The position numbers were made by a program, and so were the translations under genes. A stretch of DNA of 59,833 nucleotides, taken from Catajapyx aquilonaris. Lineage: Eukaryota. The notes beneath the pieces are model-generated. The model made no database searches. It saw nothing but the letters and a program-made list of their open reading frames with translations, and was not told the origin of the DNA. This document shows positions 16,310 to 42,943 of the stretch, piece by piece. The stretch lies in contig KZ538131.1 in assembly GCA_000934665.2 (NCBI GenBank), positions 62,001 to 121,833 of the forward strand, written 5' to 3'. Every line of letters starts with the position of its first letter. The first letter of the stretch is position 1.

Positions 16310-16555
16310 AGGTTGCGATTGGCGAGCGCTGACCTAACCGTGACGTCACGCCGTACGCCCCACCTCTTCCACTCGCCTGGGCCAGCAGCTGTGTGTATGT
16401 GAGCGAGGGTGAGAGGGAAAGAGAGAGGGTGGGAGAGGGAGAGAGAGAGAGTGTGTGTGTGTGTGTGTGTAGGCGATGAATCAAGATAGCTAGGAGGTTT
16501 GGGTTAGGCAGCGTTTAGTCGTTGGGCAGCGTTGGAACAGTGCAGTCGACTCTCG
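16310..16555 (+). promoter_or_regulatory. Putative promoter of the distal alternative first exon of the TSC22/bunched-like gene
   Basis: Inverted CCAAT (GATTGG ~16317), CRE palindrome TGACGTCA 16341-16348, GAGA/GT repeats 16400-16470, directly upstream of a GC-rich exon ending in a canonical donor. Confidence 0.55.
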
Positions 16556-16633
16556 ATGTTCATCGCCATGTACATTCTGATCCCGTGGCTAGTACTGGTC
16601 GTGTACCTCTTCTTTGTGTTCCTGGACGTGTGA
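16556..16633 (+). CDS. Upstream ORF encoding a hydrophobic 25-aa peptide MFIAMYILIPWLVLVVYLFFVFLDV
   Basis: ATG 16556 with in-frame GCCATG 16568, TGA 16631-16633; G/C-rich third positions; lies in the predicted leader of the distal isoform. Translation not demonstrated. Confidence 0.4.
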   Translation: MFIAMYILIPWLVLVVYLFFVFLDV

Positions 16634-16698
16634 GGGAGAGCATGTCCCGTTCACGTGAATAGGCCAGCCAGCCAACCCAGACCTGGGCCAGTATTGAT

Positions 16699-16744
16699 CA
16701 GCAGCAGCGGCGGAGCAGCAGCAGCAGCAGCAGAGCAGCAGCAG
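16699..16744 (+). repeat. Imperfect (CAG)n tract in predicted 5' leader
   Basis: cagcagcagcggcggagcagcagcagc...; TAA at 16745-16747 is in the main frame, so it is not an N-terminal polyQ. Confidence 0.8.
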
Positions 16745-16873
16745 TAAGGGCCCGGGAATTGCAGACTTGTGGGTCAGGCAGGCTCAGCGACGGTGGCGAC
16801 CCAGGCCGTGCTCCGAGCGCCGGATGGCCTCCCGACGTTGAGGGGGCCAGTGGTGCTGGATAGTTGGGAGCGG

Positions 16874-17097
16874 ATGAGCTCGGGTTTGACGGACATCTTC
16901 GAGATGACCTCACCCCCCGACGGAGGTGGACAGAACCAAGGGACGGTGGTGGCGACGGCCGGAATGATCGGGGTCAGTGTCAACGTGGTACCACCGGCCT
17001 CGCCCCCCAACACGGTGCCCACGCTGAAGCACAAGCTGGACCTCAGCGACAATGCCACTTTGCTGGCGGTCTACTGCTTCATCAAGAATTTTATTGG
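16874..17097 (+). CDS. bun: TSC22/bunched-like protein, distal alternative first coding exon (MSSGLTDIFEMTSPP...YCFIKNFIG)
   Basis: GC-rich coding-like ORF ending ATT GG|GTGAGT (phase 2); joins exon 35300 as GG+C = Gly in frame with ASGTSTVAIDNKIEQAM. Confidence 0.75.
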
Positions 17098-20000
17098 GTG
17101 AGTCGAGCACGGGAAGAGGTTACGCAATGCGGTATGCCGACGGATGGTGACAGGTGAAACTTGAGGATGCCCAGACTAGACCGGATGGCGGTTTGATATT
17201 AATAGATGGGCTCATAGCGGGAGTATACCTCATACTTCTTACAGGTGGGGAGGGATTAGCAGGAAGCTTTGGACAAATCTGATAGCGTATTGGTGACCTT
17301 GCAAAAGTCTGGTCCACATGCTGGAGCAGATGTTTTGCCTGAAGCATTTGTTTTGCAAACCTGGCCCTGGTTGTCATGTGACAGGTAGGCCTACTAAGGC
17401 CTGCTTAAATTTGCAACCCTTTTTTTGTCGAGCCCGGGTGCATATAAAAGTGGGTGTGTTTGCTGATAAATTTATTGAGCCGTCAGTCCAGGTGTCAGCA
17501 GGCAGTTCTTCGGCCCTTATGAATGATACACGTGTAGCTGCTGTTCATAAGACGCATATCTGGAGTAATATAACAGTTTGCTGACATACGGGTCGGATCG
17601 CTCTGGGAGCAGCGAAAGTCATGTAGTGATAGGCGAGCGACAAATAGCGCCGGCATTATGCAGTGAATCGGAGCGCATTCAAGCTTGTTCTTTCCATTCA
17701 TAAAACGCGGCCAACATGGCCGTGGCCCGAGTCAAGGTGTGTTCACAAAGCTGGCGAGAAACCGAAGCTTTCGAGCGAATTTGTGACATTTTTAGCGTGA
17801 GTGTGAATGGGGTGCAAGCTTCTCGCTACTCGCGAGTTTGTGAACAGAGGAGGTGGTCAATACTGACAGAGTATGCGAATAATGTTTGCACCGTAGTGAT
17901 GGCGTAGTGGGTCTGGCAGGATCCTGCAGAATGTGCACGATGGTCTGCTGTGCAATATCCTTCTCCGGGATATCCTATATGTTGGGCTGCATAATTCCGG
18001 GTTGACCTTGAGGGTCGCATCTCAATTATGTAGCAGTCGGAGACGTTTTTGTTTCCTGACAACTAGTTTTTTCCCACGGTCGTTTTCAGTCATTCAGGGA
18101 GATAAAATATTGTCAGTGGTGTTGAAATTTGACGGGCTCTGCTCAAACGGCATTGGTAGTTTTCATTGACCAGAGGGGGTGATAGCAGCAATATGACGAA
18201 AATGTCGTTTTACCTTGACTGAATTTCTGGCAATGCCATGAAAGTTGTGAATGACGTGATGAGGAGTGTTATCTATCTATCGCAATGCGTGGGCGTCGGA
18301 AAGATAGGACACGAAAGTATCGATGAACTATTTTCAAACGCTCTTTTAGGCACATTTTTAACAACATGAAGCTCGATGGTGTTGTCCACACGACTGTATC
18401 AGTATAGGTTCACAGAGCCACTTGAGAAGCTCATATTATGTAAATGTGAGCTTATCAAGTGAAAAGTGTGAGCAGACCATAACCCTGTTGGGCATCCGGA
18501 TTGGAAATGCACGATGTACCCATTTCGGTCGAACTGATCATGACTAGTCTGCGAGCGGTTCAGGTACAGTTACTTCCATAAACGTGCCCCTGCACACACG
18601 AGGTATTTCGTCAGTCTTGGGGAGGACGTCACTGACTCTTTTCGGTGAAAACATGGACAGACCCCTGTCTTGGGATTGTTTATACCCGGAGGGTTCTAGG
18701 CAAGCATCGATTTTCCTACCGGTTCTTTCCGGTCGAGACCTTTTTCCTCATGAATAGGTAACCATAAGTCTGAGCGCCATTCTCAGGTACTGTGGGGATT
18801 CACGTTCACTGCACATCTGACGTCACCACTCGGACGACTTGTTGCACTTTATTTTTATTGATGCAGCAGCCAGTACCACGAGGTGGACTGGTGGTTAAAA
18901 ATCGTAGGCAGCCAAGAAGGTCGCGGGTTCGATCCTTGGAGAGTGTTCGAATTTACCTCGGGGGCAACAATTGTTGTATGAAGGATCCTGCTCATGGTAA
19001 TAAAGGACTCCGTTTTAGCCCCCATGTACCTATCTCAAAGCAGTGCTAATTTTGACCAGAGGTGACATCACGGCTCCTTTGTGTTGTTTGTACAGGTTCG
19101 CTCATAGTCCTGGCATGTTGAATTTGGAACGGATATGTCACTTATTATACCCCCCCCNCCCCCCCCCCCCGGGTTATATCTATTTTTTCCCCCCCTTCGC
19201 TCCGGTACGTACGTCCTTGCCCTCTTCGGTCGGAAATAGCTGGCGCTTTGAGGAAGGATTCCCCGCTCTTGGAAAATGTCAAACAATGTGGAGGGGTAAT
19301 TGGATCAAGGACGAAAAAAAAAAGAAGGCCCGAGTGACGTGCATGCATCAGGTGGAAGCCGTAATGTAATTGCGGTGTAAAAAAGAAGCACTTCTCCTCC
19401 ATCAGCGATGCCGGTTGTCCTTGACATTGAATGGTTCGGCGCAGCGTTTGAAAACATGCAGTTCCCGCGTGAGATCGCACAACCTATTGGTCGAAGTTGA
19501 CAGACCTCAGAAAGTGGCGAAACGGTGTTGCAGTGTTAGGGAAAATAAATTTGTATCTATAGGGGTAGCGGAGGGGGAAAAAAGTGGCGTTTAGGGACGC
19601 TTCAAGGTTATTAGTACGCAAGTCAAGCTTAATGGTCGGACGTACTTATGCAACGCGACTAGCTTGTTTGCGTTACGTGGCCAGCACTGGTGGAGATAAA
19701 GTGCTGGGGTTCAAGTCCAGTACATGGGTGTCGTATTCAAAATATGTTGGTAAGTTCTTTGGTCAGGGGGGTTGTGGAATGTTCGGAATGAAAAATATTA
19801 TTGATAATATCAGGTTGAATTGGGGTGTATTATTTCAAGCCTGGGGCTCACTTCTATACTATAGGCGTTAAGGGTTGATGAACCCTCCAGCACAATACAA
19901 GGATCAGAATTCGGTATGTTATTATCAGTAACATATTTGCTACCGCTGGATGTAGGCCATGCAGGAGACAATGAGCAAGTTGGAATGCTGGAATTTTTCT

Positions 20001-23000
20001 GGTGTGACGTTTGATAAGAAATACGACTCGCGTCTTGTGGTAAAAACAACTTGTGGACTTTTGAAAATGTGGGTTCGGTGTATTGGGGGCGTGAGGCACA
20101 TGGGACATTTGGTTTTCCGAGCGGATATCACTTGTATAGCATTCAATATTGTACCGGCTGTATTACCCGAAATTCCATCGCGTTCTTGGACGCAGATATT
20201 GGCCGTAGAAACATCAGAGATAGGCGTTGTTGTTCGTGATTGGCGATGTATATGGCGTCAATGAACATGCCCCATGGGGTTAAGAGTTATCTCGCATGTG
20301 AGAGCCAACTCGCGTGTACCGCGATTATTTTCCAGACGGGCTCATCCAACGATGGCATCCACTCCGCACGGAGGTGCTCCAGTGACAAGGAAGAGTTGGT
20401 AAATCGTGACGTCAACAGGTGCAGTTTTCTCGCCACTTCCGAGAGAGGTCAGAGAGGGGGAAAAAAACAAAAAACTTGAGCTGTGGAACCGAATGGGCCC
20501 AAATTAATTCTACGGGAAGTCCCCGAAGAGCGTGGCCATGTATAAGGTACGGCTGATAAGGAATGGTGTTGGATGATAGCGGCATGACGTGTGATCTCAT
20601 GTTGACATATAAAACTCGTGCCGCGATAAAAGGCGACTCCCGTGTTGGAGCACGTGGCGGTGAAATACTCGGTTTCACGTAGCATGTACGGCTCATGCGG
20701 AACAGCAGTTTCACATTTCTGTTTGTTTTCATTTTTTGGGGGGTAAGAAACTGGAGTGCGCCACACCTCTTTTGCATGCGAGGGGGTGACGTATTGCCGG
20801 CAGATGCTGCTTTTCTTCCTGTTCCGTATGAGCTCGTGCTTTCGAATTTTTGCTGGGGTGTTAGCAAGCACTATCACCATGATTTTGGAGTTGTTTTAGT
20901 GATGACCTAGTTACCAGGGAGCTGCCAGCACCGCCCTTTTGGTATTGATTTTTGGGGAGGATAAAACGAAAACAGTTTTTTTTTGTGCTGCCGATTTCCA
21001 CGCAGCAGATTTTGGTCACGTGATACCGCGGCACCTTGACTGCAATTGGATTAATTAGCGTCGTTCTTCCACACCCTATGCGAAATTCATATTTGACCCC
21101 AAAATGTCCCGGGCAGGTTATAGAGGGTAGGAGGTGGGGGAATACCAGGCGTGGCTGAAAATGACGTGCCAAGTGGCAATTATCTACGAGCTTCTTCCCC
21201 GCGACCCACTTTTTTATATACGAAAAATGTGAAAGGGGCTATTATTGCGATCTGGAGTCTATTATAAGTCCATTCCGCCGCCGCGCACCTGTCAACGCAG
21301 CAAAGGTATCCAAGTAGGACACAATGCTCCAGTATTAAATTTTGGTGCGAGAGAGCAGAAATGCGGGCGAATCACAGTTCAAGGTTTTCTATTTCTGTGG
21401 GGGGTATATAGGCTTTTTTTTATATATAAAAAAAAGAGTTGGAAAAGAGGCACGTGAGAATGGTGGCCAGATAAGGCGAAGGAAGACGGTATTGTTAGGC
21501 TCGCGAACTGGTTCACCCTCGTGTAGATGAAGGCGATGCGTTTTCGGAAGATATTTTAAAGCTGGGGCACAATGATCCAGATGTTGCAAATTCTGGCAAA
21601 TTTGCAAGGTCGTGGCCCAATAATAATTTTTCGGCGGGCCGAGGAACCTTGGTTTTTAGCAACAATGCGGCCGAGGAGATGCCGGGCTGGAGCCGTAAAG
21701 TGTTTGGTCACATACCACATCACTTTGTTTCCCGCCAGAGCAATTGGGGGTGCTCGTTTATAGGACCGGTTGTATCAACCGGGCCTACAAAATCAGCAGC
21801 ACGTTTTATCGTAAAATGAGGGATCCAGTGATATGCAAAGAATGCGTGAAATATGGCGACTTCTATTGTGCTGATTTTAAGTGCAGTGTTAAAATTTGTA
21901 GCGCAGGGCAGGGAATTTTTTTTCAGACCCCCATGTCACCTGGTAACCCAGTCTGTGCCAGCGGAAGCAACTTTAGCGGGGGGGGGGGGGGGGGNNNNNN
22001 NNNNNNNNNNNNNNNNNNNNNNNNNNNNNNNNNNNNNNNNNNNNNNNNNNNNNNNNNNNNNNNNNNNNNNNNNNNNNNNNNNNNNNNNNNNNNNNNNNNN
22101 NNNNNNNNNNNNNNNNNNNNNNNNNNNNNNNNNNNNNNNNNNNNNNNNNNNNNNNNNNNNNNNNNNNNNNNNNNNNNNNNNNNNNNNNNNNNNNNNNNNN
22201 NNNNNNNNNNNNNNNNNNNNNNNNNNNNNNNNNNNNNNNNNNNNNNNNNNNNNNNNNNNNNNNNNNNNNNNNNNNNNNNNNNNNNNNNNNNNNNNNNNNN
22301 NNNNNNNNNNCCCCCCTTTCTGGCCTTGGTGCTAATTCAAGGCCGGAAGGAGCCCCCGTCTCTTTGGCCCTCTTCCACGCCGCTTTTGGGAGCCGCCATC
22401 TTTACCTACGTGACCTCTACATGGAATGCAGCCGTATTGCACATTCCGGCCCGCAGAAGGGCAGCCCGGACTCTCTCCGGGTGATTGTTGACATGGGCCA
22501 CGTGTGTCCTGTGCCACCAGGGGTTAGGGCCGTAACCATAAATTTGGAGGGCTAAGGGATTCTTGGCTGGGATAAACTGCCCTGTTGACGTCGCTGGTTG
22601 GCCCATAGGAAGAGAGAGAGAGGGGGGGGGAGGGGGGGGGGAAAAAAAAGAGACATTGGCTAAGCACCCAAGGAGCCTCCGTGTTATACACCACATGTAA
22701 TGTGGAGGATCTGTCATCTAGTAGCTACCCACACATGCGGCGCTTCGGAGGGCTCCAGTGCGCTTGGAGGTGTTATTGGGAGAACATGTTGGATTTTTGG
22801 TTAGTGAGGACGGCCGTATAGCGAAATGGTACACAAAGTCGGGGTCATGGAGGAGAGCAAGAAGCGTCTCAACTGTAGGCTCTACCGGGTGATGAGGTAA
22901 TGCATGTGCAGGTTTTGCTCCGTTGCATGGGTTTGCAGCTGAACATACTGGGCGCCAATGTCATATTGAATAGCTAATAGCGGTGGGCTTCCGAGCTTCA

Positions 23001-26000
23001 TTTTGAGTGGACTGCTTCGAATCGACTCGTGCTTTCTGACATGTGGACAAGCCTTGTCCCCCCATACTTCCAATCAATTATAACGTGCAATGAATAATTC
23101 CAGGGTCCTTTCCTCCGGGTCGTTTTCCTGTAAAAGTCGATGTCCCTAACGTCTTTCGCAACGATCCATCCGTCATCTCGCATGCCGACATCGGCCATAA
23201 TAAGGTTGTAAAAGGAACACTTTGGTGGGGTCACACACCCGGGCCATTCCAGGAGCCACAAGGTCGTTATCTCCCATATTTATTTGTGGTTCGGAGGACC
23301 TTTTTGACGTCATTCACGCCTTCCCTCAAGGTGCGGCCGAACAACACCGTTTTGTCGCCGTTTAAATTGTAACCGAGGCCGCTGGCTGACTCGTATGTCC
23401 GATGATGCAGCATGTGACGTATGGCGCGACATTGGGCTTTTGGGTAAAACCGAACTGAAGGCTGGCATTATTTGTGTCTGACCAGTGCAACTGCTGATCG
23501 GGTGACAAGGACAAGGTCGGATTTGGCAGGATAGTGAAAGCGTCCAATGATAACTGATGGTGTGGTAAAGCCCGGTTTCCACTGGAGCTAAGTAGCTGTT
23601 TACTTGTTTTCCGCTGGTAACATATTCAAGGTGTTGCTGCTGAATTGTCTATGTAAGAGCAGTATCTCTGAACTGGAATACACAGTGGCTGCAGCCACGT
23701 TCAGTAATGGGTCGGTTATTCGTCCTACTGCTACAGGTAGCAAAGGTTACTTGTCAAAAACTAATGACCATGGTAACCCTCTAGAAGGCTGATATAGGAG
23801 AATTGTGCACTGTACAGCCAGGAGTACTCTGGTAGCAATGACTTAGTAGAAGGACGAAAAATCGACCCAATGAAGCTTACAATTAAAGCTAGTGACGTCA
23901 GTAACCAAGTTCCTTCAGCAGGGGAGCTACAGTTCGTGAAATTCTGGCAATAAGGAACTTATTAGCAGCAAATATTAGGTGGAATAGGGCTTGACCACTC
24001 GCGCATTCAGGTATACACTGTAATCACGAGAGGTTGCAATGCTTACCTATATGGAAAGTGATTATGCGTAATTACGAGTTATCGTAATCAGGTGTAAACT
24101 TGAAGAGGAGCAGCTGATCTTAGTGGTTGAAGGTTGGACGCGAGACTTTGAATCTTACGAGTTCAAGGGTTGGACCCCCCGTTGCAGTGGTAAACAAGGA
24201 TGCTTCCATTCAACCTCACATATAGGCAGTGAATATATTCGTTAATAGATACAAGTAACAGCTTACTTAACAGCAGCTTTGTGCCAACATTTCGCCAGCT
24301 ACGACCGACAGTGCCTGTATTATGAAACTGACTATATGGTTGGTGGCTATCACCTACCTTTGAGTCAGCTGGTTTTGGGCCCACTATGAACCTGCATGCA
24401 TTTCTGGGTCCCCTTATCCACGTGAATCCCATCTTCATTTCAGGCCCACTTACTCATATGGGGGTGTTCTGGAACACCCTGTTATGTACAGTAAAGTACA
24501 GCCTTCAACCATAGTTTTGATCGAATGAAATGGAATGCTTTTCTGGAGCTGGCGATCACATTTTCGGCCGTTATCTCCTGCGTATTGCATTTAACGAGAA
24601 TTGATGAGAGGAAAAGGGGTGACGTCTGGGGGAAAGGGAGGCGCAGTTTTGGTCCAATTCATCTAGTGTCCCGTAATATTGGCTGGAGCAGTATGACGTA
24701 AGTTGGGACGTCACGTGCTCGGGATTTACTCTCCGGGTCTTCTTTAATGGATCGATACGTTTACGCATGCACAGTGCAATACCAGCAGTTCAAGTAGGGG
24801 AAAGGGGCAAAAGAAAAAAAAAGATAAGTCATTTGAAGATCACAGGGGCGATCTACCTTTTTTTTTTTTTAAAAAAAGCCCTGATTTGCATAATGCAAGG
24901 CGGGTGTTTGAAAAGCTATTTGAGCATCCCGGATTGATTCATTAGCACAAAGAGTATATGGGTCAGGGTTACGGGGTGTGGGTATACACACATGGCGGAT
25001 TGCAATTATGTGCTGTGGGGGTGCGCGTGAATGAATGTGTACCGGTGTGATGTCAGCGGGGTGATATAGGTTAGGCGGCCCTCAAGAGATATGAGAAAGC
25101 ACCTGATTTTGTGTTCAGGTGTTGAGAGTTGGAAGGCATCACGCGCGTAATGACGTTATTTGGGCGAGAAATATGTGTATGTTTTTCGTCGTGGGGACGG
25201 TTTAAAATTGGATGGTTTTTTTGGGTGGGGATCTGAGCACATACGTCGGATGTCGTACATTTTTTTTTTCGAGTATAGGTTCGCGCCGGATGTGATTACT
25301 GCGGAATTGGCGTCAGGCCACCGTGCTTATTTTTAAAGGGCGGTTATGGTAATTAATTGGTTCGACTCGGTCTGATTGGGCTGGCACCTGCGCCAGTGGG
25401 TGAATCGCACCACATTTTTTTTGTATTGTATAGCTTCAGGATTTATGTTTGCGACTGTTTCCTCTCAAGTAAATGCGACAAGCATGTTAGGCACTAAGTA
25501 ATGGATGGGGATAATTACGGTAGCTTGGTTAGAATTATGTGACTACCTGGGGGAAATCCTAATTGTCTCGTTAAAATTATTATTAGTAGCCGAAGTTACT
25601 TGATTCAAACCCCCCAAAACTGAGTATTTTTGCCTGGAGAAAAAATACGACATTTTGCTTGGGGGGAGTTGTACCTCATAGTGTGGCGTACCAGAGTGAT
25701 GTTCGTAAATAGCTAAATGAAATGCACGCGAATATTCTTCATAATATAATTATAGAAGATCAACACTTCTTAGCATGTCAGTATCGTACGCTGGAGCAAT
25801 TAGGAGGCATTCGCGTCGTCGCTTAGGCCAATTTTGTAATTTTTACTGAGAAACAGCATGTATTGTGTATTTTGTTAGAAAAGAGGGTATGGTGTCAGCC
25901 TGTACTATGCTATCAGCCTCTATAGCACTCGCAATACCTGGAAACCACCTGCACCCCATGTCCTATACGTGGGCCAGAGCCTTGTCACCAAGTACACCTA

Positions 26001-27417
26001 CCCAGGACTAAGTGGTCGTAGGCTGTCGTTGAACTCTGGCACGAAGGCATCTATAAAAAGCAAAAGGTCATGCTAATAATTAATCCCATAAAGAACAATA
26101 GGCCAATGAGTGTCGCAGTCATCAATAAAAGTCGTGCACTCGACATAATGACGCGCGACTTCCGACCCCGTGGTCACCTTCATCACTTGTGAGAGGAAAT
26201 GATATTGCTGAGGCACATCGGATAGGCAAAGATGATAGGAGCTAAGAGAAAGGAGCCTGCTGGGGGTGCTTTTCTGTGCCTCCACACTTTGCCCCCTTCC
26301 TGGCCCTCCCTTCCACCCCGGGCTCCCCAACCTCCTTAGTAATGGCACGCATGCGCAGGGACTAACCTTTTATGATCAAGTCTGCCAGAGACGCGTCAGT
26401 GTTCCGTGGGCACCAACCTTTGTGCTGCCGAAATCTTCGAAAAAGCAAAACGGGGGACGGTATGGGTCCTTGATAGGGACCCGGAGCCCCTCCTGGCGTG
26501 TGCTGGGTCAGCCAAAGAGGGGTAGGTCAAGGGTCACGGTGCATGATTGCGAGAGAGGCATGCTATAATTTTCTGACATACGCACCTGCTAGAAGTATAG
26601 TTTGGTAGGTTATGAGGGTTGGTATGTACTGTATGTAAGCGCGGACATTTTGTCATATTTATATTTATTTATATATTAGGAGGAGTCGTGCACAAAATGT
26701 CCGAGTAGTAGGCGTCCAGGCAAGAACGGGACCTGGGCAACATGCCAGGGAATGTAGGTCCTGCCAGGGAAATTATTGATTCTCCTAGCCAAGCCGGCCC
26801 TAAGTCGGTCTGCCACTAAACCGGATAGTTCTGGTAGCTTTGCGGAACATTGTCCCCCCCCCCCNCCCTACTACCCCCGCACTAGTCGTTTAGAGTTGGC
26901 TGTCAGTGTTATGGTTATTGCCGTGTGACATAACAGTTGGCGGCGTGAAGGGAACGGAATATTTGTGTATGTTACACCTGTTCGTGGGTAACTGTTTTGT
27001 TGGTTCATATTAATCTTACGGGTTGTCTACCTCGCGGTAGAGTTCAAATGGCACATTGAAACATGGGACAATTGTTGTGATTAGGAACTGGTCCGTGTTG
27101 ACATATTGGTGTAGCTTGCCTATAGCTAGTCGTGTCGATCAGCATTGTTTTCGTACTTCCGTTTGGTGCGATAGAAATACTCGGAAAGTTATGCGTCGGC
27201 ATCGGAATACCGCAAATGATATGTTTCTCCTGTTATGATGTATTCGAGCTTGAAATAGCACTGACGTCACACGACTTAATTGTTAGCTACAGCGTTCATG
27301 TCGTTGAGTCATTGTTGCTCATTGTCATGTCAATATTCTGATACTTGTGTATTACACTTGTCCGTTTTATATACTGAAGGTGTATGTGTATGTATGTATA
27401 TGTAATCCTGCACGTTT

Positions 27418-27510
27418 TTAACGCCAAGTCTCTCTCTTTGTAGGTAAGTGTCGAAACATGATTGACAACAATGCCTGGCCATGGGTTGCTAACCAGAAGG
27501 TCACGTGAGT
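27418..27510 (+). other. Candidate recursive splice site (AG|GT at 27443/27444) with 61-nt cryptic RS-exon 27444-27504
   Basis: TTAAC branch-like 27418-27422, tctctctctttgTAG followed by the perfect donor GTAAGT; downstream donor CAC|GTGAGT at 27504/27505. Confidence 0.6.
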
Positions 27511-30500
27511 GTGTGAGAATGCATGTGGATTGAGTGTACGCTGCTGTCTCGAGTAAGCCAAAGTAGTAGACCATAATTATCAGCAAAGCGAGAAAAAAAA
27601 ACCCCCCGTTGCATCACTCTTGTATTGGTAACAAGAAGGTTAAAAATCGCAATGAGCCTCTTCTACGTCACGCAGGTCGTACCACCCGCGACCGACCAAT
27701 TGTAGAGAACCTTTCAGGGGTCAGCGTCACCGGGTAATCAATTCTTTCTGTGAAAGGCGGGCTCTGTAGTGCTTGGGACGGCCGCAAGGAAAATACATAC
27801 CGGATCGGTTTGGTGCAGGTTCATTACACCGAAACTAACAGGTCCGATACTGTAAAAGGGCGAACCGCGGGCGACCAAACTAATGCAAAGCTCCGATTTG
27901 GCCAATTGGCGACAGGTGAGCGTGGGCGATACTAATTCTCGGAGGCGCTTCGCCAGTTAGTGGCTAGGTGGCAGGAGCGGGCCAAAACACCCTGCTGCGA
28001 TTCTGCCGTAGGGTGGCGCCTAGCGGCAGCGGCTGGAACTTGGTGGTTTCAGGCTCGCGAATGGTGGCGCCAACCAGCGACCGCCTGCGGAATTACTAGT
28101 GGCTCAAGGACGGACCATTTTAATTTGAACAATAAATTGAGCTTAAATATTTAAATGGCAGGATGAATTCAATTTGAATGCAGTTGACGACGTCAAGACG
28201 TCATTTCCTATCCGTCCAGACTAGATGCTGATTGAGTACGGTGCTCTGCCATGCCAGAAGGACATTGTATCCTGACATGTTTGCAACCTTGTCGCCTGCT
28301 CTGCTCCACAGGTCGTGTGTGAATAGGCGTGCGTGTTGAATATGTATTGCGGATGGGTTGCACACACCCCCGATTTGGTAGTATTATGGGCGGCTTCAGT
28401 GGAGGAGCGTGTGCGTCGTACGTCAGTATGTCACCGTGTAAATTGAAGCCTTATTAAAGGAACTTGGAAGCGAGCCATGGAGGTTCAAGGCTGACGGATT
28501 CGAGTTTCACGACCGGAGGACCGTGCGGAGAGAGGGAGATCTTGTGTTGTTGTTTATTGCTGTCATAGTTTTTTCTCCCCCACTCGATGGAATATCAGCA
28601 AATTCCTAACTGGCGGGGGGTGATGTAATCGCAAAGTGACCTTGGTCCACTTGCAAATGAGGAGTGAAGGTGAATTGGGTTGACCAGTTGCTCACCACGG
28701 ACGTAGTATCATTTGTGGAAAACTGATGGATCGGTTTAAATTTCGAACGTAAACCAGGTCACGGTGCGCATTAATGACGAGTATACGGGCCTATACCGCG
28801 ATGATGCCAGACGCAGAGCACTTTGAGGAGATTGCGAATCACGTGAGACTCCGATTATCTTCCGGCGCAAGTTATGTTCCTTTTCATGCTTAGCTATTCT
28901 CAAGCTTAGACTCATGGCCATATTTGGAGACATTTATGAGATTAGCCTCGTACAAAGAACAGATACGTAACAATTTTATCCGATTGCGGGGCGGACATTG
29001 CCGGGGTGCAGAGAAACGCAGTTGGTCAAAAGAATGGAATTTTTCTGCCTGACATCGCTGCTGATTCTCCAGAATCGTTGCAAAAGTCGCCTACAAGAAT
29101 CAAGTGAAATACAGAGCAGGGTTGCAGATAGTATGTGGTCAAATATAAGAGCGTAGGAAGGGTTAATTTGTTTGCGTTTCTGAATGGAAAATTTGCAAAA
29201 CAACTTAGGGTGCTCATTTTACATACACATAAGCCAGCCTGAAGATGTGGAGCGAGAGATAAAGGAAATAGAACGCGCCGGAAACTATTATTTGGGAAAT
29301 GTGGGGATCATTATTTCGTAATGCTCGAATCATATAATTTTACACGCTTTAGGCGTACTGTATGACGTTCTTTTCTGCATGTATTTAAAAATCGATACCT
29401 ACAGCATGCACTTGTTTAATAATGCAACTCGCGAGAGAGAAGACGGGCCAAGCTTAACAGGTGGCCGTCTACCCCCCACCCCGCCATGTGTTACTATGAG
29501 AGATGTGGTGGGTGACAAGCTACAAATATTATAGCATATATGCTGCATGTCATAGCAATCGGGACAATTATTCCGTGAACAATTTAAAATAATTTGCATA
29601 TAGATGTTATCCGTGTGATAGTTTTGAGGGCCCAGAATTTCCCCCAGTTAGATGTATCACGCCGACAACCTTGCCCTACTTAAAAGAATTACATGGCAAG
29701 AGATGAAGAAAGTGTAGAACATTGTGCGTAACACAATTGACGCGATTAAATATCTCTCGCACGATTTTTGAGGAATCCAGAGCTTATTACGCGAGCATGC
29801 TGCAAGTGGAAAAAGAAGGAAAAGTCGAATTATTTCGCATTTAAAAAAACGATTGGTCAGTGAAGGTACCGATCGTTTGGGGTGCAGCATATATATAGGC
29901 TACGTCTTCATGGGTACATGGAGTAAGATTGATAAAAAAAAAATCAATTAGTTAGACAAGCTTAAAATTAGGTCCAATCCATATATATCATGTGCCCTTT
30001 TTAAGCCGAATTGCCCGATAATAATGGCGTCCACAACTTTTGATTAAAACATAATGGACAACGAAGATCAGGTCCTTATAATCCAACAAGTCATATCGTC
30101 CACTTGTCAACCGTCCCCTGGGCCGGTAGAGGATGAGTCCATTTGTGAATTACGTTATGGGTTATGCGATTCGTGTCTGGAGTCACGTACAGTATAGACA
30201 TGCTGTATATAGTCACGCTTTCCCGGCTGGTAAATGTGTCTGGGTATTGTCTGTTTTTTCCGGCTCGAGTACAGCACCTTGCATTATTTCATGACAGACA
30301 TGGCCGTAAGCCTATTCAGTTTGTAATATCTCTGTTAGCAATATGATATCCCACTAGACAAGTTCTGAAACTGTAGACTGACCAGTGGGCGGCGGTCTTA
30401 TCATGAATTTAAAAAAAGATTTATTTGACCTTGACTGGACAATGACAATGTGCTTCTGTGGAGGGGCCAATGAAGTTATCTTTTGCCTTCCTCAAAGTGC

Positions 30501-33339
30501 ATCGCGGTCGAAAGAGTTCGAGAGCCATTGTGCACTGTCAGACCAATATTCACGAGTTAAAAACGAACCCAATCTTGAAGGACTTACACACGTGTGCCCG
30601 TTAATGTTGGGAGAAACCGGGCCCAAACTATGTAAATCACAGCATATTTGGAGTGAAATGAAAATGAAAGTGGCATCAATTACAAGCAAAGATTATCTTC
30701 GGATGTATATTGACTGCACATGACGCAAATTAAATCTTCCTGCAAAAAATAAATAAATAATCGTACATTTCGTAGCATATTTTTTGATTTACTGATGACT
30801 GAAAGCGTGACATTGAATTCTATTCCTGATCAGGTAAATATGTCGTGCAACAAATAGAGGACGTTTTTTGAATAAATTGTTCTTCCCAAAGTGCGTCACC
30901 GAAACTGCGGATTCTATCGGGCTCGTACCTGGGACGTGTGGTACTAAGGGCATACGTGCCTATTACGGAGGAAAACAACAACTTACAAACATGAGATTCT
31001 CGTTCCAGACGCCTGACTTGTATATAGGATTGGCAGATGGCGACCCCACATTATGGAAATCATCTTTCCTTCTAAGAAAAATGACGCCATTGAATCCACA
31101 ACATTTCTGATACGCACCCGAAAACAGAATTAGAAAATCCATCTTGTTTTTGACAGTTGGCACGGTTGGGCAAAGTACAGCACGTTAGTAGCACACATGT
31201 CATAAAAAGGTGCGAAACGGCCTGAGAAGTGCTGAACTGGCATGAAGGGGTCAGTGAATCTGTAACCTGCAGATCAGTATGCTGAATACGATGCCAGTGG
31301 CTTAGAAATATATCAGTCGAAGCTTCCATTTTTCAATTTGGGTTCACATTGCCGTGACGCCAAACCGATTATCCGGTGTAGTGTTGGGGGGGAAAACGGC
31401 TTCGTACTCTCCGCATTTTTGTCAGCGCTGTACCAAGTCTCTTGTCTTTTACATATCTTTTGTTGGGGGTGCTGGTATCCACCATCAGCATTGACGTGCA
31501 TTCGTGCTCATTTAGTCGCACTTGGGTGCCGGCCAGACATTGACACCTGCGTATCGGCGAATCCTTAGCACGAGATTACCTTGTCGAGATGTACACACGC
31601 CGTGTGAAATAAGTCTTCGTATCTGCGGCGCCTGACATCCTAGGAATTTATAGCGGCTCGGAGTTAACTCATAGTTATAATAATAATAAAAATGCGCGAT
31701 TGTTGATAGAGCGTAATGGCACCGCCTGATGACGTAGCGGCCGCGATGTTTCCTTCAACAACTCCCAAGATGGCCATGGTTCTGCCTCGGCCCCAGAGAT
31801 CTTCCGGGTGACACAAGGTCGCACCCAGGGACTTTTCCGGTCGAGAAGGTTCTTTTTGTTTTAACAGCGCACGCGTGAACCCGACTTAATGAGCGACCAC
31901 CTGTAACATTGGCGGGGGGCTTGATTGCACGTAATGTAGTCATCAAGACGCGGAAATTATAATAATGACGTTAACAGTATTAGTGCGCTTTAGGTGAGAC
32001 TGCTTTCAGACGTGATTTGCATTGAATGGGCAATGTGCGTGATAATGGCGGATTATATATAATTTTTTTAAAAAACCGCATCGTGTATGTGAACTCATTA
32101 GATGGAGGTGTTACATTAATCCGCGACAAGGGAGATGACACGGTTGACCTCAGCGAGGCCAATTGCTGTATCAGCCCCAACGGTTATGATCTGGCTCAGT
32201 TTCCAGACATTGCAATCAGCGGACTCTGAACCAGTATTGTTTAGTAAAAGCGGGTTTTAAAATTTTAATCGGGGCAAAAGTGACACACTGACTCACTTTT
32301 TTTTTTTGAACGTTGGTCTTGAGTAAACTGGGCGGATTGGTGAATCACCGTATCGGTGACCTTGGTTATTCATTTTTAATGATGGATTTTTGCGACACTG
32401 AAGATGTGGCATTGAAATCCCAGAGATGAAAGCCGGCGGTATTTGATGAAGTCGTTACGTTTCCTGTTTGCTCATTAGCACACAAAGGGGTGACATGCAT
32501 GATGGGGCAGGATTGCGGAGGGATTCGGTTCGAAAATGGAGCCCAATTAGCAACGTTGTTTGGGAGATTGGATGATTTTTTTTTTAAAAAAACTAATTAG
32601 CAGGAGGCTTTTGAAATGGGGTGAAGGCGGAGAAACTAATAACGTACAGAGAGGGCCTCCTCGTATTTTTAGTGCTCGGCCCTTGAGACAAATGTGGATG
32701 AGCTCGGAGACACTTCTTGGGAGCCGAAGAGGTGCTTTGAAGGGGGTACCTGTCGCGAACTTTCGGAGATGTGCTGTTGACTACCTTGTTTGTGTAGGGT
32801 GAACAACAATGATTTCACAACAAGTGTGTGCCTGATGTCGTTGCGAAAGCTGGTTTGGAAATATTCTAGGTTATATACTGTATTTATTTTTTTCACTCTG
32901 CGGTTGAATGTATTTACGGCATTGATTTCCGTTTGATAACGTGCTCGATATACTTCTGGGACACACGTGCTTGGTCGCTCTTCCTTCAAGCATTCCGGAA
33001 AAGTTTCCACTTTCTGAGCCCCCCTCTTGCCTGTCACTGAAAAGAAATGCAACAATGCCAATGATCTCTCTTCTAAGTAAACGAGGTTCACGTTTCCCCT
33101 TTAGCAGCCAGTTCTTTAACCCTGAAGAACCCCTCCCCCCTACTGTAAATTGCCAAGTTTTGTAGCCTGCATTCCGCCATTGGAGTTGACGAGTGAGCGT
33201 AGTGACCTCGGCAGGTTGGAAATGATTCCAAGAGTTGAGGGGGTGGGAGGGGAAAAAGAGACCCAAGGACTGGCAGTTCGCGTAGGTACTTGTAACGTGT
33301 ACGGTGTACGGCGTGTAGTGCTGTGTGCAACGCGCGCAG

Positions 33340-33460
33340 AATGGGTCACGTGGGGTTGTGACGTCAGGGAGGAGCGCAGATAGGATGGGGGAGGGCCATG
33401 TGGTCTCAGTGCAGTCGGTGGCAGCAGGTAGAATCGGAGTCAGTCACTTCCGTTACGTGT
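33340..33460 (+). promoter_or_regulatory. Putative promoter of the proximal alternative first exon
   Basis: E-box GTCACGTG ~33345, CRE TGACGTCA 33359-33366, Inr-like TCAGTC ~33440, CpG-rich. Confidence 0.55.
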
Positions 33461-33664
33461 GAGGACAGTGTTTGGAGTGACCGGTGGCCTCCAGTCGGCA
33501 ACATTGGCTTGAGGCGCATAGACCGTCTTGGGAGATGAATGTCCGTGCAGTTACAAGGCTAGTCACGTGGTGCTCCTAGAGGAGCGCCTTCGCCGGTGAA
33601 GACGGCGTCCTTACCAGTTGTGATTCCGGCCGGTACCGTCGTGGGCTATCAGGGCGGCCAGACT

Positions 33665-33942
33665 ATGTTAGTGATGGTTATGCCGATGCCGATGCCCATG
33701 CCCATGCTGATCCCGATGCCAATGGTGACTCTGCCGGCAGCGGTACCGGCAGCGGTACCAGTTCCCGCCCCCGCTCCAGTGATTAGGCAGAATAGTGCTC
33801 CCAGTGGTTGTCCAGCTAGGCCTGGACCCATTCCGATCATCACGGTCAGCGATCATCAGGACCGTGGTACCGACATGGTGCAGATGTACCGCCAGTATTA
33901 CCGTCCACCGCCCAGGCTGCGCTTACAGAGGGTTCAGTCCTA
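33665..33942 (+). CDS. bun: TSC22/bunched-like protein, proximal alternative first coding exon (Met/Pro-rich N-terminus)
   Basis: ORF MLVMVMPMPMP...RLRLQRVQS ends TCC TA|GTAAGT (phase 2); TA+C = Tyr in frame with shared exon 35300. The frame is open upstream to GTG 33596. Confidence 0.7.
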
Positions 33943-34992
33943 GTAAGTAGCGGATCCAGCTGTCAGAAGTCGGTGCCAGTTTTAATCCTGGAAGTGATAT
34001 AGTGAAGGGCATCAATCGCCGATAGCCTCAATATAGGAAATAGCAGTTTTTTTTCATGGAAAAACAGCGCCAAACTGATAGGGTGTTATACAATACGACA
34101 TCGGTGTGCCAAAATCTTTCGCGGAATTTTTCACTCGTTTCGGGGTTGATCCGGGGGGGTGAATATCTGGGCGGGTGAGTGGGTTATCTCCCGGCTGATA
34201 GTCAAAAAAGTTGACGGGTCGTGGCACTTTTGCGATAAACGGGCAGTGCACATCGGGTATTGTGTTGTGGAAGGATTGGCCCGACGCAGCAAGCCTTGAA
34301 CCCCAGTTAATTTTATCGCCTCGTGTTACTTGGAGGATGGCGGGAAGAGTCGGGTTCTGCGAGTGTCATACTGCTCGGGTTGACAGATAATGGAGTCAAC
34401 CTGAGACGGCAATTTCTCAGCGTGGGAATTTTGCCCTAGAATCGTTTGGGCGATCAGGATCGGGCCGGATAATTTGCGAGACAAGCTCCCCCTCCTCCTT
34501 CCATTGAGCAGATATGAAAACAGGAGACGTGCATTTGCGTAAGCGGGGCATAATGGGGCGAAAAAGTGCACATTCCGTTGCCTAATCGTGGATGACGGCC
34601 CAGGATATTCGATTCATTAGCAGGGTGACGCACGGAGCCTCTTAACTGGACGAGCACAAGTAGGAGGAGGGGGTACGTCGTCACATGTCGCCTGTCGCAT
34701 CCCCATCCTCCGTTCTCGGTACATGGTGAACGAGAGGACAATACAAACTAGGGAGGTTACGGGTCCTAAGTCTGCGGTGAGGACATGACCAGCGTCACTT
34801 CCTGCAATCTGTTCTGGATGAGGGGTTTTTAGGCGGGTAAATAGCGCACCTGACGTACACGTGGTGGGAATAGGTTTTCCACATTTGCGTCGGGGGAGTT
34901 TAAAGGGATGAGCCGGGGCATGAACTGGAAACGTGATATGCTGTAATTATCTCGCAATTAAGCTGGGCTAACGAGCCGGTTGTAAAAAAAAA

Positions 34993-35023
<31 letters not shown>

Positions 35024-35299
35024 TGCGAGGAACGTCAGCGGCAGGACCGAAATCGGCGGGTCGGGTGAACCAGGAAAAGCGATCAGTCGCGGCATCGGCG
35101 GATTGGGAAACCTGGTGACCTTGCCGGGAGGCACCTTGGATGCAAATGATCTTCCTGAACCTACTACCACCCACCGCACCTGGCTTACCCCCGACAAGCG
35201 GCTGGATATTGAATGTGCTTATGATGTGAATAAGGCTGGTTGGCTACACTGTCAATAAACAGTATCTGAATTGTCATTTTTTTCTCTCTCTCTTTTCAG

Positions 35300-35351
35300 C
35301 GCTTCCGGCACCAGCACCGTGGCGATAGACAACAAGATAGAGCAAGCAATG
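35300..35351 (+). CDS. bun: TSC22/bunched-like protein, shared exon (ASGTSTVAIDNKIEQAM)
   Basis: Acceptor tttctctctctcttttcAG, donor ATG|GTAAGT; the peptide is the hallmark VAIDNKIEQAM start of the TSC box. Confidence 0.95.
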
Positions 35352-37043: not shown

Positions 37044-37256
37044 GATCTGGTGAAGAGTCATCTGATGTTTGCAGTCCGTGAAGAGGTGGAGGTCCTGAAA
37101 GAAAAGATATCTGAGCTAATGGACAGGATCAACCAACTTGAGTACGAGAATGGCATCTTGAAGGCAAATGCCACTCAAGAAACTCTGGCCCAGCTGACCC
37201 AGCCCCCACCCAAGAACCAGCAGCCTCCAGGTGGACCGCCATCGTCCGTGTCCTAA
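37044..37256 (+). CDS. bun: TSC22/bunched-like protein, terminal exon (TSC box + leucine zipper)
   Basis: Acceptor atctttcac[43 protein letters not shown] is the canonical TSC22 domain; stop TAA ends at 37256. Confidence 0.96.
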
Positions 37257-38955: not shown

Positions 38956-40023
38956 GCTTTAGAGACCGTCCGTCCGCCTCCAAAAGCTGTCTGACTGGCT
39001 TGAAAATACGTGCTAATATATATGAATATATAATGCTGCGTCGCTATATATTTATATAATATTGCTTTTTCTTTTAACTTGCCGGTTGCCGCCCTAGGCC
39101 ACGGCCTCGTGTGACCTCACGGCTAATCCGCCACTGGCTGTAATACTAACTAACGTTGAAACTAAGAGTTGAAAAATTGACTGGACAGTGTGTACAGCAG
39201 GGTTGCTTCCCATTTGATTACGTGATGTGACCGCCTGCTCCCGCTAGCCGAACATGTGCATGTGCATAAATTTTTTTAAGGTTTGGCAGTTATTCCTGCC
39301 AACTGGCATTTTTGCCTGTCCCATAGGTTTTTCACAATGGCTTAGGCTCATTTTTTATTGACTGCACCTTATACATGAGGATGTACTCCAGTTAACATTT
39401 GCAGTAGAGCCAAGCCATCATCAGTTTTCAAATCAGTTGATTGGAGCATTGCAACACTTAATGCTGCAAACTTTTCACCCAACCTGGTAATGACAGTGAG
39501 TGGACTAACAGACAGGAGAAACTGTCATACAAATGAAGGGTGTTGTGGAAAAAGGTGATACTCATTTTTGACCTGAACACCTAGCAGCAATGTAAAAGAC
39601 ATGACAAACAGTATGGTATACTCCAAGTTCACGTATCATGCACGAGACAGCCACACGGACTAGATCAAAACCCACATTCCCCATGATTTGTTACGAGAAT
39701 GCAAACTTAAATTCGCTCTCCTGAAAAATTACACTTTTGTGGGTGTTATCACCTTTGTCCACCACACCCCTCAAATGAAACTCACAAGTAAGTCTAAATT
39801 TGATGGTAGCAAGCCAGGATTTGTCTTCACTACTATGTAAGCAAGTGCAAGGTCAAATATTTCCTTTGGATGATCTCAAAACTGGTTTTTTGTACCTACA
39901 AGTTAGTGGGGGGGATTTCTCCTGTATGCTCATGACATATAACCAGGGTGGTGCCTTAAAGTTTAAAATAGCACATCTGTGCTACATCCTCCTAATTCCT
40001 GGCATACTCCTCATTTTACTGAC

Positions 40024-40493
40024 CTGAGTGAGTCAGAAACCGTGGTGGCAACCTGTTGTGCTGTAGCAAAAGGCTGTTCGCTGAGCTTCACACCATCTTT
40101 TCTTTCCTCCTCTTTTGGCTCCCTCTCCACTCCGAGATTTAGCACCACCTGGCATTTCGAGAGGAACCCTGGGAGTGGCCCTAGGAGTCCCTTAGAGGCC
40201 CGGTCAACGAAAGATTCACAGCTCTGCTTGAGGTGCCGATCTACCTCCTTCTTTGAATCCCTGCAGTATTCCACCACTTGAGGGGTGCCCTCCAGAAGAA
40301 ACTCCAGCAAAGAATTGTTGCCACTCAAGGAGAAGAGACGACCTCGCTTTTGCACTAGGCCAGCGGCTGCTGAGCGGACTCGAGAGAAATCCAACGAGGT
40401 CTCCCGAACGGAGAAGTCCACATGGAAGGGGGCAATCTGTTCACGAACTATCAATAGGTGTTTGATCAGGAACAGGTGCCCATCCAGTGGGGT
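40024..40493 (-). CDS. COG3: COG3 exon 6
   Basis: tttCAG|ACC ... CTC AG|GTCAGT; DGHLFLIKHLLIVREQIAPF and NNSLLEFLLEGTP are COG3 motifs. Confidence 0.93.
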
Positions 40494-40738
40494 CTGAAAG
40501 AGGAAGCACAGTTGCACAGCTTGAGTAAAGATGAAATTGAAAACGAGTGTGCCACGTGTTGGTCAAAATATAGTGAAACTTTTATTAAAGTAAACTGCCA
40601 GTTTCAGGAGGAGGAAATTTTATTAAATGGCTTGGCAACACCAAATGTTCATGTTAGTTATTGGAAGAGCATTTCAGGAATAAATAAAAAATTACCATGT
40701 GTCATTTACAGACTCAAAATGCACAGACTAGATAAGTG

Positions 40739-41026
40739 ATTTCCCCCACCGAGGGGGATTAGCCATGGTCGGCGCTCGAGTCACTTCCCAATGTAGTAGC
40801 GCCTTACCTGGCGGGGAAATTCTGAACCATTAGGGTCGACTCCAATTGGCTGGAGTTATGCCTGGAGTCTTAAAGGCCTCCTGTGGAGAGCCATGTTGTG
40901 GCCCAAGGACACCAGCCAATTGGAGTCGACCCTAATGGTTCAGAATTTCCCCGCTAGGTAAGGCGCTACTACATTGGCAAGTGACTCTAGCGCCAACCGT
41001 GGCCAACCCCCATTGGTGGGGGAAAT
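40739..41026. mobile_element. Near-perfect foldback element (MITE-like) in COG3 intron 5
   Basis: ~115-bp arms (TTTCCCCCACC...CCAATTGGCTGG / CCAGCCAATTGG...GGTGGGGGAAA) around a short loop. Confidence 0.75.
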
Positions 41027-41780
41027 GAACTAAGCTCACGCGAAAAGAGGGAGAGTGACTGGGGGCTGGTCATAGTAGCCTACAGTTCATGTTACATAAT
41101 ATGGTAACTGAGGGCAACTGCCCAAAAGGATAAGTTGTTATCCCAGTATTAATTCTAGAACTTAAATCATTACTGATACTTCAAAACACTCGACCTGATA
41201 ATTTTAAAATTTGCATTTAATGCCATTACCTCAAGAACGCACCCAGTTAGCCTGTCCAATATCAAATTGCATGATTGCTGACAGATTGCACCAACCAAAA
41301 TTACAGATTAGATAGCTCCTAATGTATCGTTAGGAGCCCTAACCTGTGATAACGATCTGTTTGGAACTATCAAGTCGGTAATTTCGTTGGTGCAATCGGG
41401 CTTCAGTCAATAAAAATGGATCAGCCAAATGAATTTCTCTTGTCATGTTAAGGTGGAAGGCACAGTAACCCAGGTGATTTACAGCCTCATTCTGCCTGAA
41501 GGTGGAGCCCACTGCACTGCCTTATCTGAATGCCACCTACTCCAGAAAACTCATCATGATAATTGAGTGATAAGAAGCTCAGAAAGACACCAAGTTGTCA
41601 GGCCTTGCATATGATCACTTACAAGGTCCTTCGTCTCAAATGGTGTGTGACAACTCAGCATCTTGCAAAGAAGCTTCACATTGCCTCATGCTATTGTGGT
41701 GGATTGTCTGGCGCACCCCCCCCCCCCCNCCCCCCCCCCCCAAACTCCCTACTCCCTATCTAGCCATATGGGGAAAGCCA

Positions 41781-42079
41781 TGCGCTTAGCTAGTCCCCAA
41801 TCCCTGGATGTGGAGCACTGTACTGTACCAGATCGCATTCGGGCGGCCGACTTTCAACCGTTCTGAACCTACCTAAACTGTCAACTCTCATTCGGCCCCT
41901 GTTTGCAGATCCATCAGCCACCCTAATGCGATTTGGAATGGTCCAAATCGTATTTGGGTGGCTGGTGTGGTAGATCTGCTGAATGGGAGTTGACAGTTTA
42001 GGTAGTTTCAGAAGTCGTCTGCCCGAATGCGATTTGGTACAGTGCTCCACATCTGGGGATAGGGGACTCGCTAAGTGCA
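41781..42079. mobile_element. Foldback element (MITE-like) in COG3 intron 5
   Basis: Arms TGCGCTTAGC..GATGTGGAGCACTGTAC..TCGCATTCGGGC / GCCCGAATGCGA..GTACAGTGCTCCACATC..GCTAAGTGCA. Confidence 0.75.
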
Positions 42080-42943
42080 CACGAAAAGAGAGGGAGTTGC
42101 AGGGGGCTGGTCTGGAGTGAGTGGCATCAGGTTTTGGGTTAGGTTAGGTCTGCCTTAAGCCAGAAGCAGGGTTGTAACCAGATCTCTTCTGCAGAGCAGA
42201 AAAGTTTGGTTGACATCGGAGCAACTACATCATCAGTGGGAAGCAAAACATTGGACTCCTCCTCCCCAAAGCAGACATGGGTCTGCTCTGCAGCAAAGCA
42301 TGCAGTATGATAAGACGTGATGATCTTAACATACAGCCACATACCCAAGAGAACTTGAGGATATAATTTTTACATGTAGAATTGAGCTTCCATTGTTTGT
42401 TTGGTCAAAAGAAGTGGCTGTGTGTTCTTATAATACTCAGTCTGGTCACTTCGCCTCTTATCGCATTCAGGGGGTTGACGGGGTGGTAATGCGGTAGGTG
42501 GCCACAGCAGAGCTTTCCGCCATGCCTTTAATAGCATTTAATAGAAGACAAGGTAGATTTCCACTGTGTCTTCTGTTAAATGCATCTTTGCCAGCTAGGT
42601 TTGCAGCAAGTGCTGCAGTAGCCACTCCACTCTGATGTCAATCAGATCCATGAAATATGAGACATAATTGAAATTTTAACAATTTGGTTCCTGGACTTAT
42701 TCACAATTATGAATGTGTATGATTCACTGTGGTCCACTCATGCACTGTCACGCGTGAGACCCTTGTCCTACCACGTGTATTTTATAGAAAGTATAAGTCA
42801 AGTAACCTGGAATGTGGTGTCTACATCTAATAATTTCGCTTGTAAGGAAACTATTGTCCATTCACACGTTGTGGGGTAGGGTTCTATCTATCCCTTCCAA
42901 CACAGGTTACAATTACAATGAAAAGTTAAGAGTTCAGCCTAAC

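Follow-up and report, generated by a model that had tools for sequence, protein, structure and literature searches.

The 59,833 nucleotides analysed here (positions 62,001 to 121,833 of the forward strand of contig KZ538131.1, assembly GCA_000934665.2, from Catajapyx aquilonaris; hereafter the window, with positions counted from its first letter) contain a gene of the TSC22/bunched type. TSC22/bunched proteins are growth regulators in insects, and GILZ/TSC22D3 proteins are mediators of glucocorticoid action. In the leader of a short isoform of this gene, at 16556-16633 on the plus strand, lies a small and strongly hydrophobic upstream open reading frame (uORF), which a preliminary description of the same DNA had put forward as a candidate membrane micropeptide co-encoded with a TSC22 isoform. 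Our comparisons suggest that it is probably a conserved-peptide uORF carried on the short-isoform mRNA, and not a chance frame. Butterflies and moths carry the same peptide in front of this gene, and the frame is therefore probably a real, previously unlisted micro-gene.

The host gene and its transcript

All exons of the host gene given here lie on the plus strand. The segment 37038-37253 matches the Pfam family PF01166 (TSC22) with an E value of 6e-28 and 97.2 bits (cut-off 30), which bears out the earlier assignment of the host to TSC22, and the last coding exon (37044-37256) encodes the TSC box and leucine zipper, followed by a stop. Exon 2 (35300-35351; ..ASGTSTVAIDNKIEQAM) has an acceptor that is common to alternative first exons. 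The first exon of the short-isoform mRNA occupies 16527-17097, as delimited by a spliced contig, its true 5' end lying at or upstream of 16527, and its coding part runs from the first in-frame ATG at 16874 to 17097, with a GT donor at 17098.

The transcript evidence consists of assembled contigs of one run set (X5). A 600-nucleotide (nt) contig from the same organism is 100% identical to the window over 16527-17096, at a depth of 33.6 and with no differing letters, and continues from 17096 to 35299-35328 across an intron of 18,202 nt with GT..AG borders (cut 17097/35300). Since the X5 contigs are spliced they derive from RNA, and since this one covers 16527-17096 and is joined to exon 2, the uORF lies on the mature short-isoform mRNA. 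The transcript begins upstream of both in-frame ATGs of the uORF (16556 and 16568), reaching at least 16527 and thus at least 29 nt 5' of the first of them; the position of the start site was a check proposed in the preliminary description, whose further claim, that frame and TSC22 isoform share one mRNA, is borne out by the splice from 17097 to 35300. Contigs of runs X1, X3 and X4 matched only simple repeats in the window (22605-22653 and the CAG run at 16699-16735) and are uninformative about the gene.

Protein comparisons identify 16874-17097 as the first coding exon of a short isoform. A profile built from exon 1 of the window and of its metagenome relatives matched 18 insect proteins, those with a TSC22 domain being 133-158 residues long; because these matches include short isoforms, annotated as 'TSC22 domain family protein 3' (Anabrus simplex, Frankliniella occidentalis) or as 'protein bunched, class 1/class 3/D/E isoforms-like' (Bombyx mandarina, Pieris napi, Thrips palmi), the exon can be assigned accordingly. 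Alignment scores against insect proteins were 76-101 for exon 1 of the window and, for exon 3, 205-232 with six named species and record P0007 and 128-161 with three other records. By this measure, exons 1 and 3 lie at roughly the same distance from the named proteins of Orthoptera, Lepidoptera, Hemiptera and Thysanoptera, and the source looks like an arthropod from outside these orders. A motif in exon 1 reads ..LSDNATLLAVY.. in the window and ..LND.TLFAVY.. in the aligned insects, and only the C-terminal 28-51 residues of the exon-1 protein align with the named insect isoforms. A word-index protein search with exon 1 alone, covering longer proteins only, gave no match at E values up to 0.001, and a scan of bacterial and archaeal genome contigs and of viral contigs with the exon-1 alignment yielded pattern matches with no relative among them.

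A second spliced contig joins 33650-33942 to 35300, and so represents an alternative upstream, long-isoform exon. Three further contigs end in unmatched sequence just before 35300 (35276-35300 region), which suggests more alternative first exons outside this stretch.

Sequence and composition of the upstream frame

Read from its first ATG, the uORF comprises 25 codons and a TGA (16556-16633, plus strand), lies inside the spliced contig and translates as MFIAMYILIPWLVLVVYLFFVFLDV. Retranslation reproduces exactly the hydrophobic 25-residue frame first described, including the run of 23 consecutive uncharged residues (residues 1-23) and the two in-frame ATGs, which stand at 16556 (ctctcgATGt, T at -3) and 16568 (atcgccATGt, G at -3, the GCCATG context already pointed out). 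The context of the first AUG is poor and that of the second is better. Read from the second ATG, 16568-16633 gives a core of 21 codons and a TGA with the peptide MYILIPWLVLVVYLFFVFLDV; the C-terminus is LDV-stop.

The uncharged run of 23 residues, together with a grand average of hydropathy (GRAVY) of 2.47, places the peptide within bilayer-spanning length (about 19 residues or more). The two strands of the window together contain 407 ATG-initiated frames of 20-40 residues, among which it ranks first in GRAVY (mean -0.07, standard deviation 0.66, second-highest value 1.90). Mononucleotide shuffles of the body of the frame matched this value in 12 of 200,000 cases, a rate that becomes about 0.02 when corrected for 407 frames; the hydrophobicity of the uORF is beyond what composition alone gives.

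Its codons are strongly periodic. T occupies the second position in 19 of the 25 codons, the first in 7 and the third in 2, in a leader that around the uORF is G-rich with 21% T. All 75-nt segments of both strands (n = 119,516) were screened for 19 or more T in one phase with no more than 9 in the other two; of the 24 that qualified, 23 fall in two trinucleotide microsatellites, and the only other starts exactly at 16556. Third positions are G or C in 21 of 25 codons (0.84). The neighbouring coding exon (16874-17095) has a value of 0.80, and those of five further exon frames in the window range from 0.52 to 0.62. The resemblance to real exons that had been remarked upon is thus numerically correct, yet it is a weak point because the leader outside the uORF is already 66% G+C.

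Conservation in lepidopteran-type records

The closest counterpart of the peptide occurs in P0009, a record that was retrieved through the exon-1 profile alone and not through the uORF peptide. P0009 was called as a gene of 176 residues on a contig of 2,602 nt; its frame crosses the leader and ends within the intron, past ..NFIG. The main-ORF part is lepidopteran in type and, read side by side, closely resembles those of Pieris napi (P0005), Leptosia nina (P0008) and Bombyx mandarina (P0003). Its N-terminus is MYLFCPWFFLVIYLAFLMLDV. Aligned without gaps from the second Met to the final DV, the window 21-mer and residues 1-21 of P0009 are identical at 12 of 21 positions and positive at 15, with a BLASTP E value of 2e-8 under composition-based statistics, and shuffling the window peptide 100,000 times at constant composition never gave as high a score, whether against the whole of P0009 or its first 21 residues alone. 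Y2, P6, W7, Y13 and the terminal LDV are fixed between the two, while the nine replacements are all hydrophobic or small (I, L, V, F or M in seven, C and A in the others). A tblastn comparison of P0009 with the whole window gave a single high-scoring segment pair (HSP) at 16568-17098, within which similarity is confined to the two ends, namely the uORF and the end of exon 1.

The conserved start is consequently the second ATG (16568), and the conserved product has 21 residues, not 25: the 25-residue frame of the preliminary description exists as a frame, while the conserved unit is the 21-mer with which P0009 begins. The four N-terminal residues from 16556 are absent from P0009, and the tblastn row for record P0004 hints at their presence there.

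Three more records carry homologous DNA that has been translated in another frame. In P0008 (Leptosia nina), P0004 and P0006 the frame used is +2, which gives ..HVPILPVV[LF]SRD[IL][SP][SW][FV][PS][HY]AGRV.., and their possible back-translations agree with the P0009 peptide at 21 of 21 codons in P0008, 21 of 21 in P0004 and 16 of 17 in P0006, whereas no register slid by 1-8 codons gives more than 11 compatible positions. In all three, the codon after DV could be a stop (in P0008 and P0006 it cannot encode W), and the uORF frame differs from that of the main ORF. Eight codons vary in the 22-codon block: six change unambiguously at the third position of the uORF frame and one is ambiguous, while the last changes at the first position under free parsimony, or at the third and second if the Ala of P0009 is counted. 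This pattern is read from translations of another frame, with second codon positions inferred in three of the four records and eight changes in total. In the 30 residues before and the 50 after the block, the lepidopteran-type records show no same-frame alignment. As far as such translations allow, the substitution pattern appears synonymous-biased and island-like, as would be expected of a coding frame. Conservation of the peptide, which had been suggested as a test, is thus seen in the lepidopteran-type records, apparently with a bias towards synonymous changes; no counterpart was detected in four distinct metagenome relatives or in P0016, which we take up below.

Two alternatives can be weighed directly against these data. 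The first is a chance ORF in a transcribed leader, its likeness to P0009 being the coincidence of two hydrophobic stretches. Short ORFs are ubiquitous, this one was singled out for looking unusual, and it is missing in some relatives; the composition-corrected E value and the shuffles speak otherwise, as do the location of the P0009 match upstream of an orthologous exon and the agreement in register of three more records, and we consider coincidence extremely improbable. The second is a conserved nucleic-acid element, promoter-proximal or in the 5' untranslated region (UTR), that happens to be open in one frame. The block lies some 30-110 nt from the observed 5' end of the transcript contig, where promoter-proximal elements can occur, and automatic annotation used another frame in three of the four lepidopteran-type records. 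Such an element would not readily account for the retention of start and frame in the window and P0009, for nine replacements that are all hydrophobic or small, or for the concentration of the lepidopteran-type changes on one codon phase (6-8 of 8), and the periodicity of T at position 2 and G or C at position 3 is a property of coding sequence. Moreover, an Rfam search gave no match beyond an 18.3-bit chance level (E 0.81), and the leader has no unusual predicted RNA structure (fold z 0.69). This explanation seems to us improbable.

Two further features of these records deserve mention. A patch of the form ..[RS][DH]DRY[SF].. stands about 13-35 residues past the uORF block in P0004, P0008 and P0009; its frame relative to the uORF in P0009 differs from that in P0004 and P0008. 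The patch, which has no visible equivalent in the window, may represent another conserved element of the leader. Separately, no TSC22 domain is present in P0008, P0010 and P0012, NCBI/UniRef records from Leptosia nina and Leptidea sinapis that are labelled 'unnamed protein products'; judging from their sequences, these are probably mis-annotations, gene models that take the leader in the wrong frame or extend into intron 1.

The remainder of the leader and the main start

The uORF sits 240-270 nt 5' of the main AUG, and two further mini-ORFs on the plus strand stand between them, one at 16642-16662 (6 codons, MSRSRE, A at -3) and the other at 16824-16841 (5 codons, MASRR). A 5-codon ATG frame at 16476 lies upstream of the start of the X5 contig at 16527. 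Within the main ORF, ten codons separate two in-frame ATGs, the first at 16874 (C at -3) and the second at 16904 (G at -3). In the metagenome relatives, the coding exon begins at a Met equivalent to 16904 with no in-frame ATG farther upstream, which makes 16904, and not 16874, the probable conserved start of the short isoform.

Other sequence elements surround these frames. A perfect TGACGTCA palindrome, which we take to be cAMP response element (CRE)-like, occurs at 16341-16348, about 185 nt before the transcript contig begins, and (GA)n/(GT)n microsatellites follow 3' of it at 16403-16479. Within the leader, a (CAG)n run occupies 16699-16745, between the uORF and the main ATG.

A putative membrane micropeptide and its alternatives

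On balance, we favour a reading in which the peptide is made and acts in trans as a single membrane helix, its translation also reducing initiation at the TSC22 AUG. Scanning ribosomes would first meet the AUG at 16556, in poor context, and then the conserved AUG at 16568, in better context, and would translate a peptide of 25 or 21 residues that is hydrophobic almost throughout and ends in LDV-stop. Selection would act on the peptide itself, replacements between distant lineages remaining hydrophobic and differences within Lepidoptera falling mainly at third positions. Once released, the peptide would form one membrane-spanning helix and function as a trans-acting micropeptide; insertion would have to follow release, since a chain of this length does not extend beyond the ribosomal tunnel. 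Translation of the uORF, together with the two further mini-uORFs, would lower and condition initiation at the main AUG downstream. Free exchange among I, L, V and F alongside fixed P, W, Y and D is, as far as an alignment can indicate, the pattern of lipid-embedded helices.

Several observations weigh against this reading. In P0009, a W stands at the stop position and the frame is open into the main ORF, so that a separate small peptide would not be universal unless the missing stop is a contig error; if the contig is right, the absence of an intervening stop predicts a membrane-anchored form of 176 residues. Membrane micropeptides are usually oriented by a polar flank or a basic residue, and the window peptide has neither, apart from a C-terminal Asp. 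Its conserved residues are not clustered on one helical face (41,342 of 100,000 random sets equal their arrangement). A at -3 is the preferred context in insects, and it is found at neither AUG of the uORF.

The distribution of the peptide is a further difficulty. A metagenome scan with exon 1 retrieved seven loci, representing four distinct sequences with 43% identity over residues 8-74, and in none of them was a uORF homologue found within up to 3 kb upstream (1.4 kb in L001); a motif scan of 0.2-3 kb downstream in the same loci gave no uORF-like frame either. The leaders of these loci could not be aligned with that of the window (MAFFT), and blastn and tblastn gave matches at chance level only. 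What they carry is an apparently unrelated 15-codon uORF (MFVIPITFVYSGGRV and three variants), which lies 26 nt before the main ATG (1370-1417 in L001, 2936-2983 in L002-L007) and whose start and stop are kept. In the insect record P0016, about 87 upstream codons examined in three registers gave 11 of 21 compatible positions, where shuffles average 11.3. Finally, the 41-residue frame that holds the peptide (16508-16630) matched no Pfam family at E values up to 1, and a HMMER search of 1.84 billion representatives gave no match at E values up to 0.001. A word-index search with this stop-to-stop frame likewise found no candidate, and there was no profile match between it and phospholamban, sarcolipin or other Pfam micropeptide families. 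The nulls in protein libraries are weak evidence because very short proteins are probably absent from them.

The 15-codon uORF of the metagenome relatives was also considered as an eroded homologue and was discarded as evidence, its scores against the window peptide and P0009 being at chance level. All four differences among its four sequences are non-synonymous, and its peptide therefore looks unconstrained; with 4-5 variable columns per 50, the region is conserved no better than its immediate surroundings.

The main rival to a membrane micropeptide is a uORF that acts purely in cis, slowing, arresting or consuming scanning ribosomes and thereby setting their supply to the TSC22 AUG, with the released peptide degraded and without function. 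Conserved-peptide uORFs upstream of regulatory genes do usually act in cis, and the leader has the layout of translationally controlled regulators, three uORFs preceding a main AUG in poor context (position -3 is C for 16874 and G for 16904). The LDV beside the stop is identical in the window and P0009, a feature that could belong to an arrest peptide, and uORFs of this sort are presented for Drosophila by Hayden and Bosco 2008 (PMC2276209). Conservation, however, spans the whole 21-mer and not its C-terminus alone, in the form expected of a lipid-exposed helix. A stop is compatible with the sequences of three records, whereas P0009 has W in its place, and this lack of a stop counts against any mechanism linked to termination, including arrest at that point. 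The single IPW or CPW is the only proline context, no proline run being present, and the RNA structure of the leader is ordinary, with the z score given above. We therefore regard an exclusively cis-acting uORF as unlikely, although it is the alternative to be taken most seriously.

The open frame of P0009 raises another explanation, in which the uORF is a remnant or alternative N-terminus, that is, the present or former in-frame membrane anchor of a longer TSC22 isoform, which some species would still have in fused form and which stops cut off here. In the window, uORF and main ORF do share a reading frame, with two in-frame stops (16631 and 16745) between them, P0009 is open from its hydrophobic Met into the main ORF, and the tblastn HSP unites both. 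A shared frame is expected by chance in one case in three, however, and the roughly 100 codons between uORF and main ORF are unconserved. In P0008, P0004 and P0006 the two frames differ and a stop after DV is compatible, and P0009 is one contig, possibly in error. As a general account of the frame, an N-terminal anchor is in our judgement highly improbable.

Returning to the trans-acting micropeptide, a bolder version of it would hold that the 21 residues are an ancient transmembrane micropeptide which pre-dates the split from Lepidoptera, is a second product of the locus from the mRNA of the short (GILZ-like) isoform, acts in trans at a membrane with its output coupled to that of TSC22, and is a fused anchor in some species; this we advance only tentatively. 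On this bolder view, the peptide would be among the shortest conserved membrane peptides of animals, at a locus much studied for growth control and glucocorticoid signalling. If a conserved peptide is indeed co-encoded in the leader, its 21 residues would lower the size at which conserved animal coding sequences merit a search. Output of the short isoform would probably be under translational control, and alleles, transgenes and knock-downs that touch the leader may alter two products at once. In addition, public databases contain mis-annotated read-through proteins from which conserved mini-frames of this kind can be retrieved.

Relation to known systems

The frame shares with conserved-peptide uORFs (CPuORFs), sets of which are described in surveys of Drosophila (Hayden and Bosco 2008, PMC2276209) and animals (Takahashi et al. 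2020, PMC7530721), an AUG-initiated position in the leader of a regulatory gene and an amino-acid sequence kept between distant species. It differs from them in being almost purely hydrophobic and of transmembrane length. The terms 'bun', 'bunched', 'TSC22' and 'CG5461' are absent from the main texts of both surveys and from three supplements of PMC2276209, the supplement of Takahashi et al. not being covered. With the same exception, the accessible literature on TSC22, bunched and GILZ leaders and the CPuORF surveys contain no description of the peptide, in agreement with the preliminary description, whose author knew of none. Thus, while the kinds to which it would belong are known (conserved-peptide uORFs and uORF-encoded membrane microproteins), a member at this locus and of this size appears to be new.

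Among the uORF-encoded membrane microproteins, the SLC35A4 upstream microprotein and STREMI are several times longer than our peptide and have soluble parts. Like them, the window peptide would be a conserved small protein encoded in a leader, beside a canonical protein on one mRNA; unlike them, it has 21-25 residues and no polar flank except the C-terminal Asp. Both are reported as transmembrane microproteins from bicistronic mRNAs (PMC12183330 for SLC35A4, PMC13303939 for STREMI), and the latter report proposes a dual role, of peptide and of main-ORF control.

Sarcolamban, phospholamban and sarcolipin offer a likeness in being very small, essentially one transmembrane helix (here predicted) and conserved in insects. 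These peptides have short transcripts of their own and a polar cytosolic N-terminus. The 41-residue frame has no Pfam match, and membership in their family is unsupported.

Leaders with several short uORFs before the main AUG of a regulator are also known from ATF4. ATF4-type uORFs act independently of their peptide sequence, whereas the peptide sequence of the window uORF is conserved. TSC22D3 is listed in tables of transcripts raised on polysomes after eRF3a depletion (PMC3479206). Human cells under endoplasmic reticulum stress have more ribosome footprints on a structured part of the 5' UTR of TSC22D3 (GILZ) (PMC6185107), a hint that leader translation may be regulated in the vertebrate counterpart as well.

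A possible first origin of the frame is offered by the de novo membrane peptides arising from thymine-rich sequence (Vakirlis et al. 2020, PMC7005711), in that T-rich codons give transmembrane-like small ORFs. Unlike those peptides, the window frame lies in a G-rich leader with little T and is old, because it is common to lineages whose exon-1 proteins are only about 49% identical.

Other features of the window

Downstream of the TSC22 gene, a multi-exon gene occupies 40011-48203 on the minus strand, with long exon frames at 44042-44671 and 47811-48203. Runs of N, which mark assembly gaps, lie at about 21990-22310 and 48960-49100, with G- or C-rich simple sequence on either side. At 22605-22653, a purine-rich repeat draws thousands of unrelated contigs from other runs.
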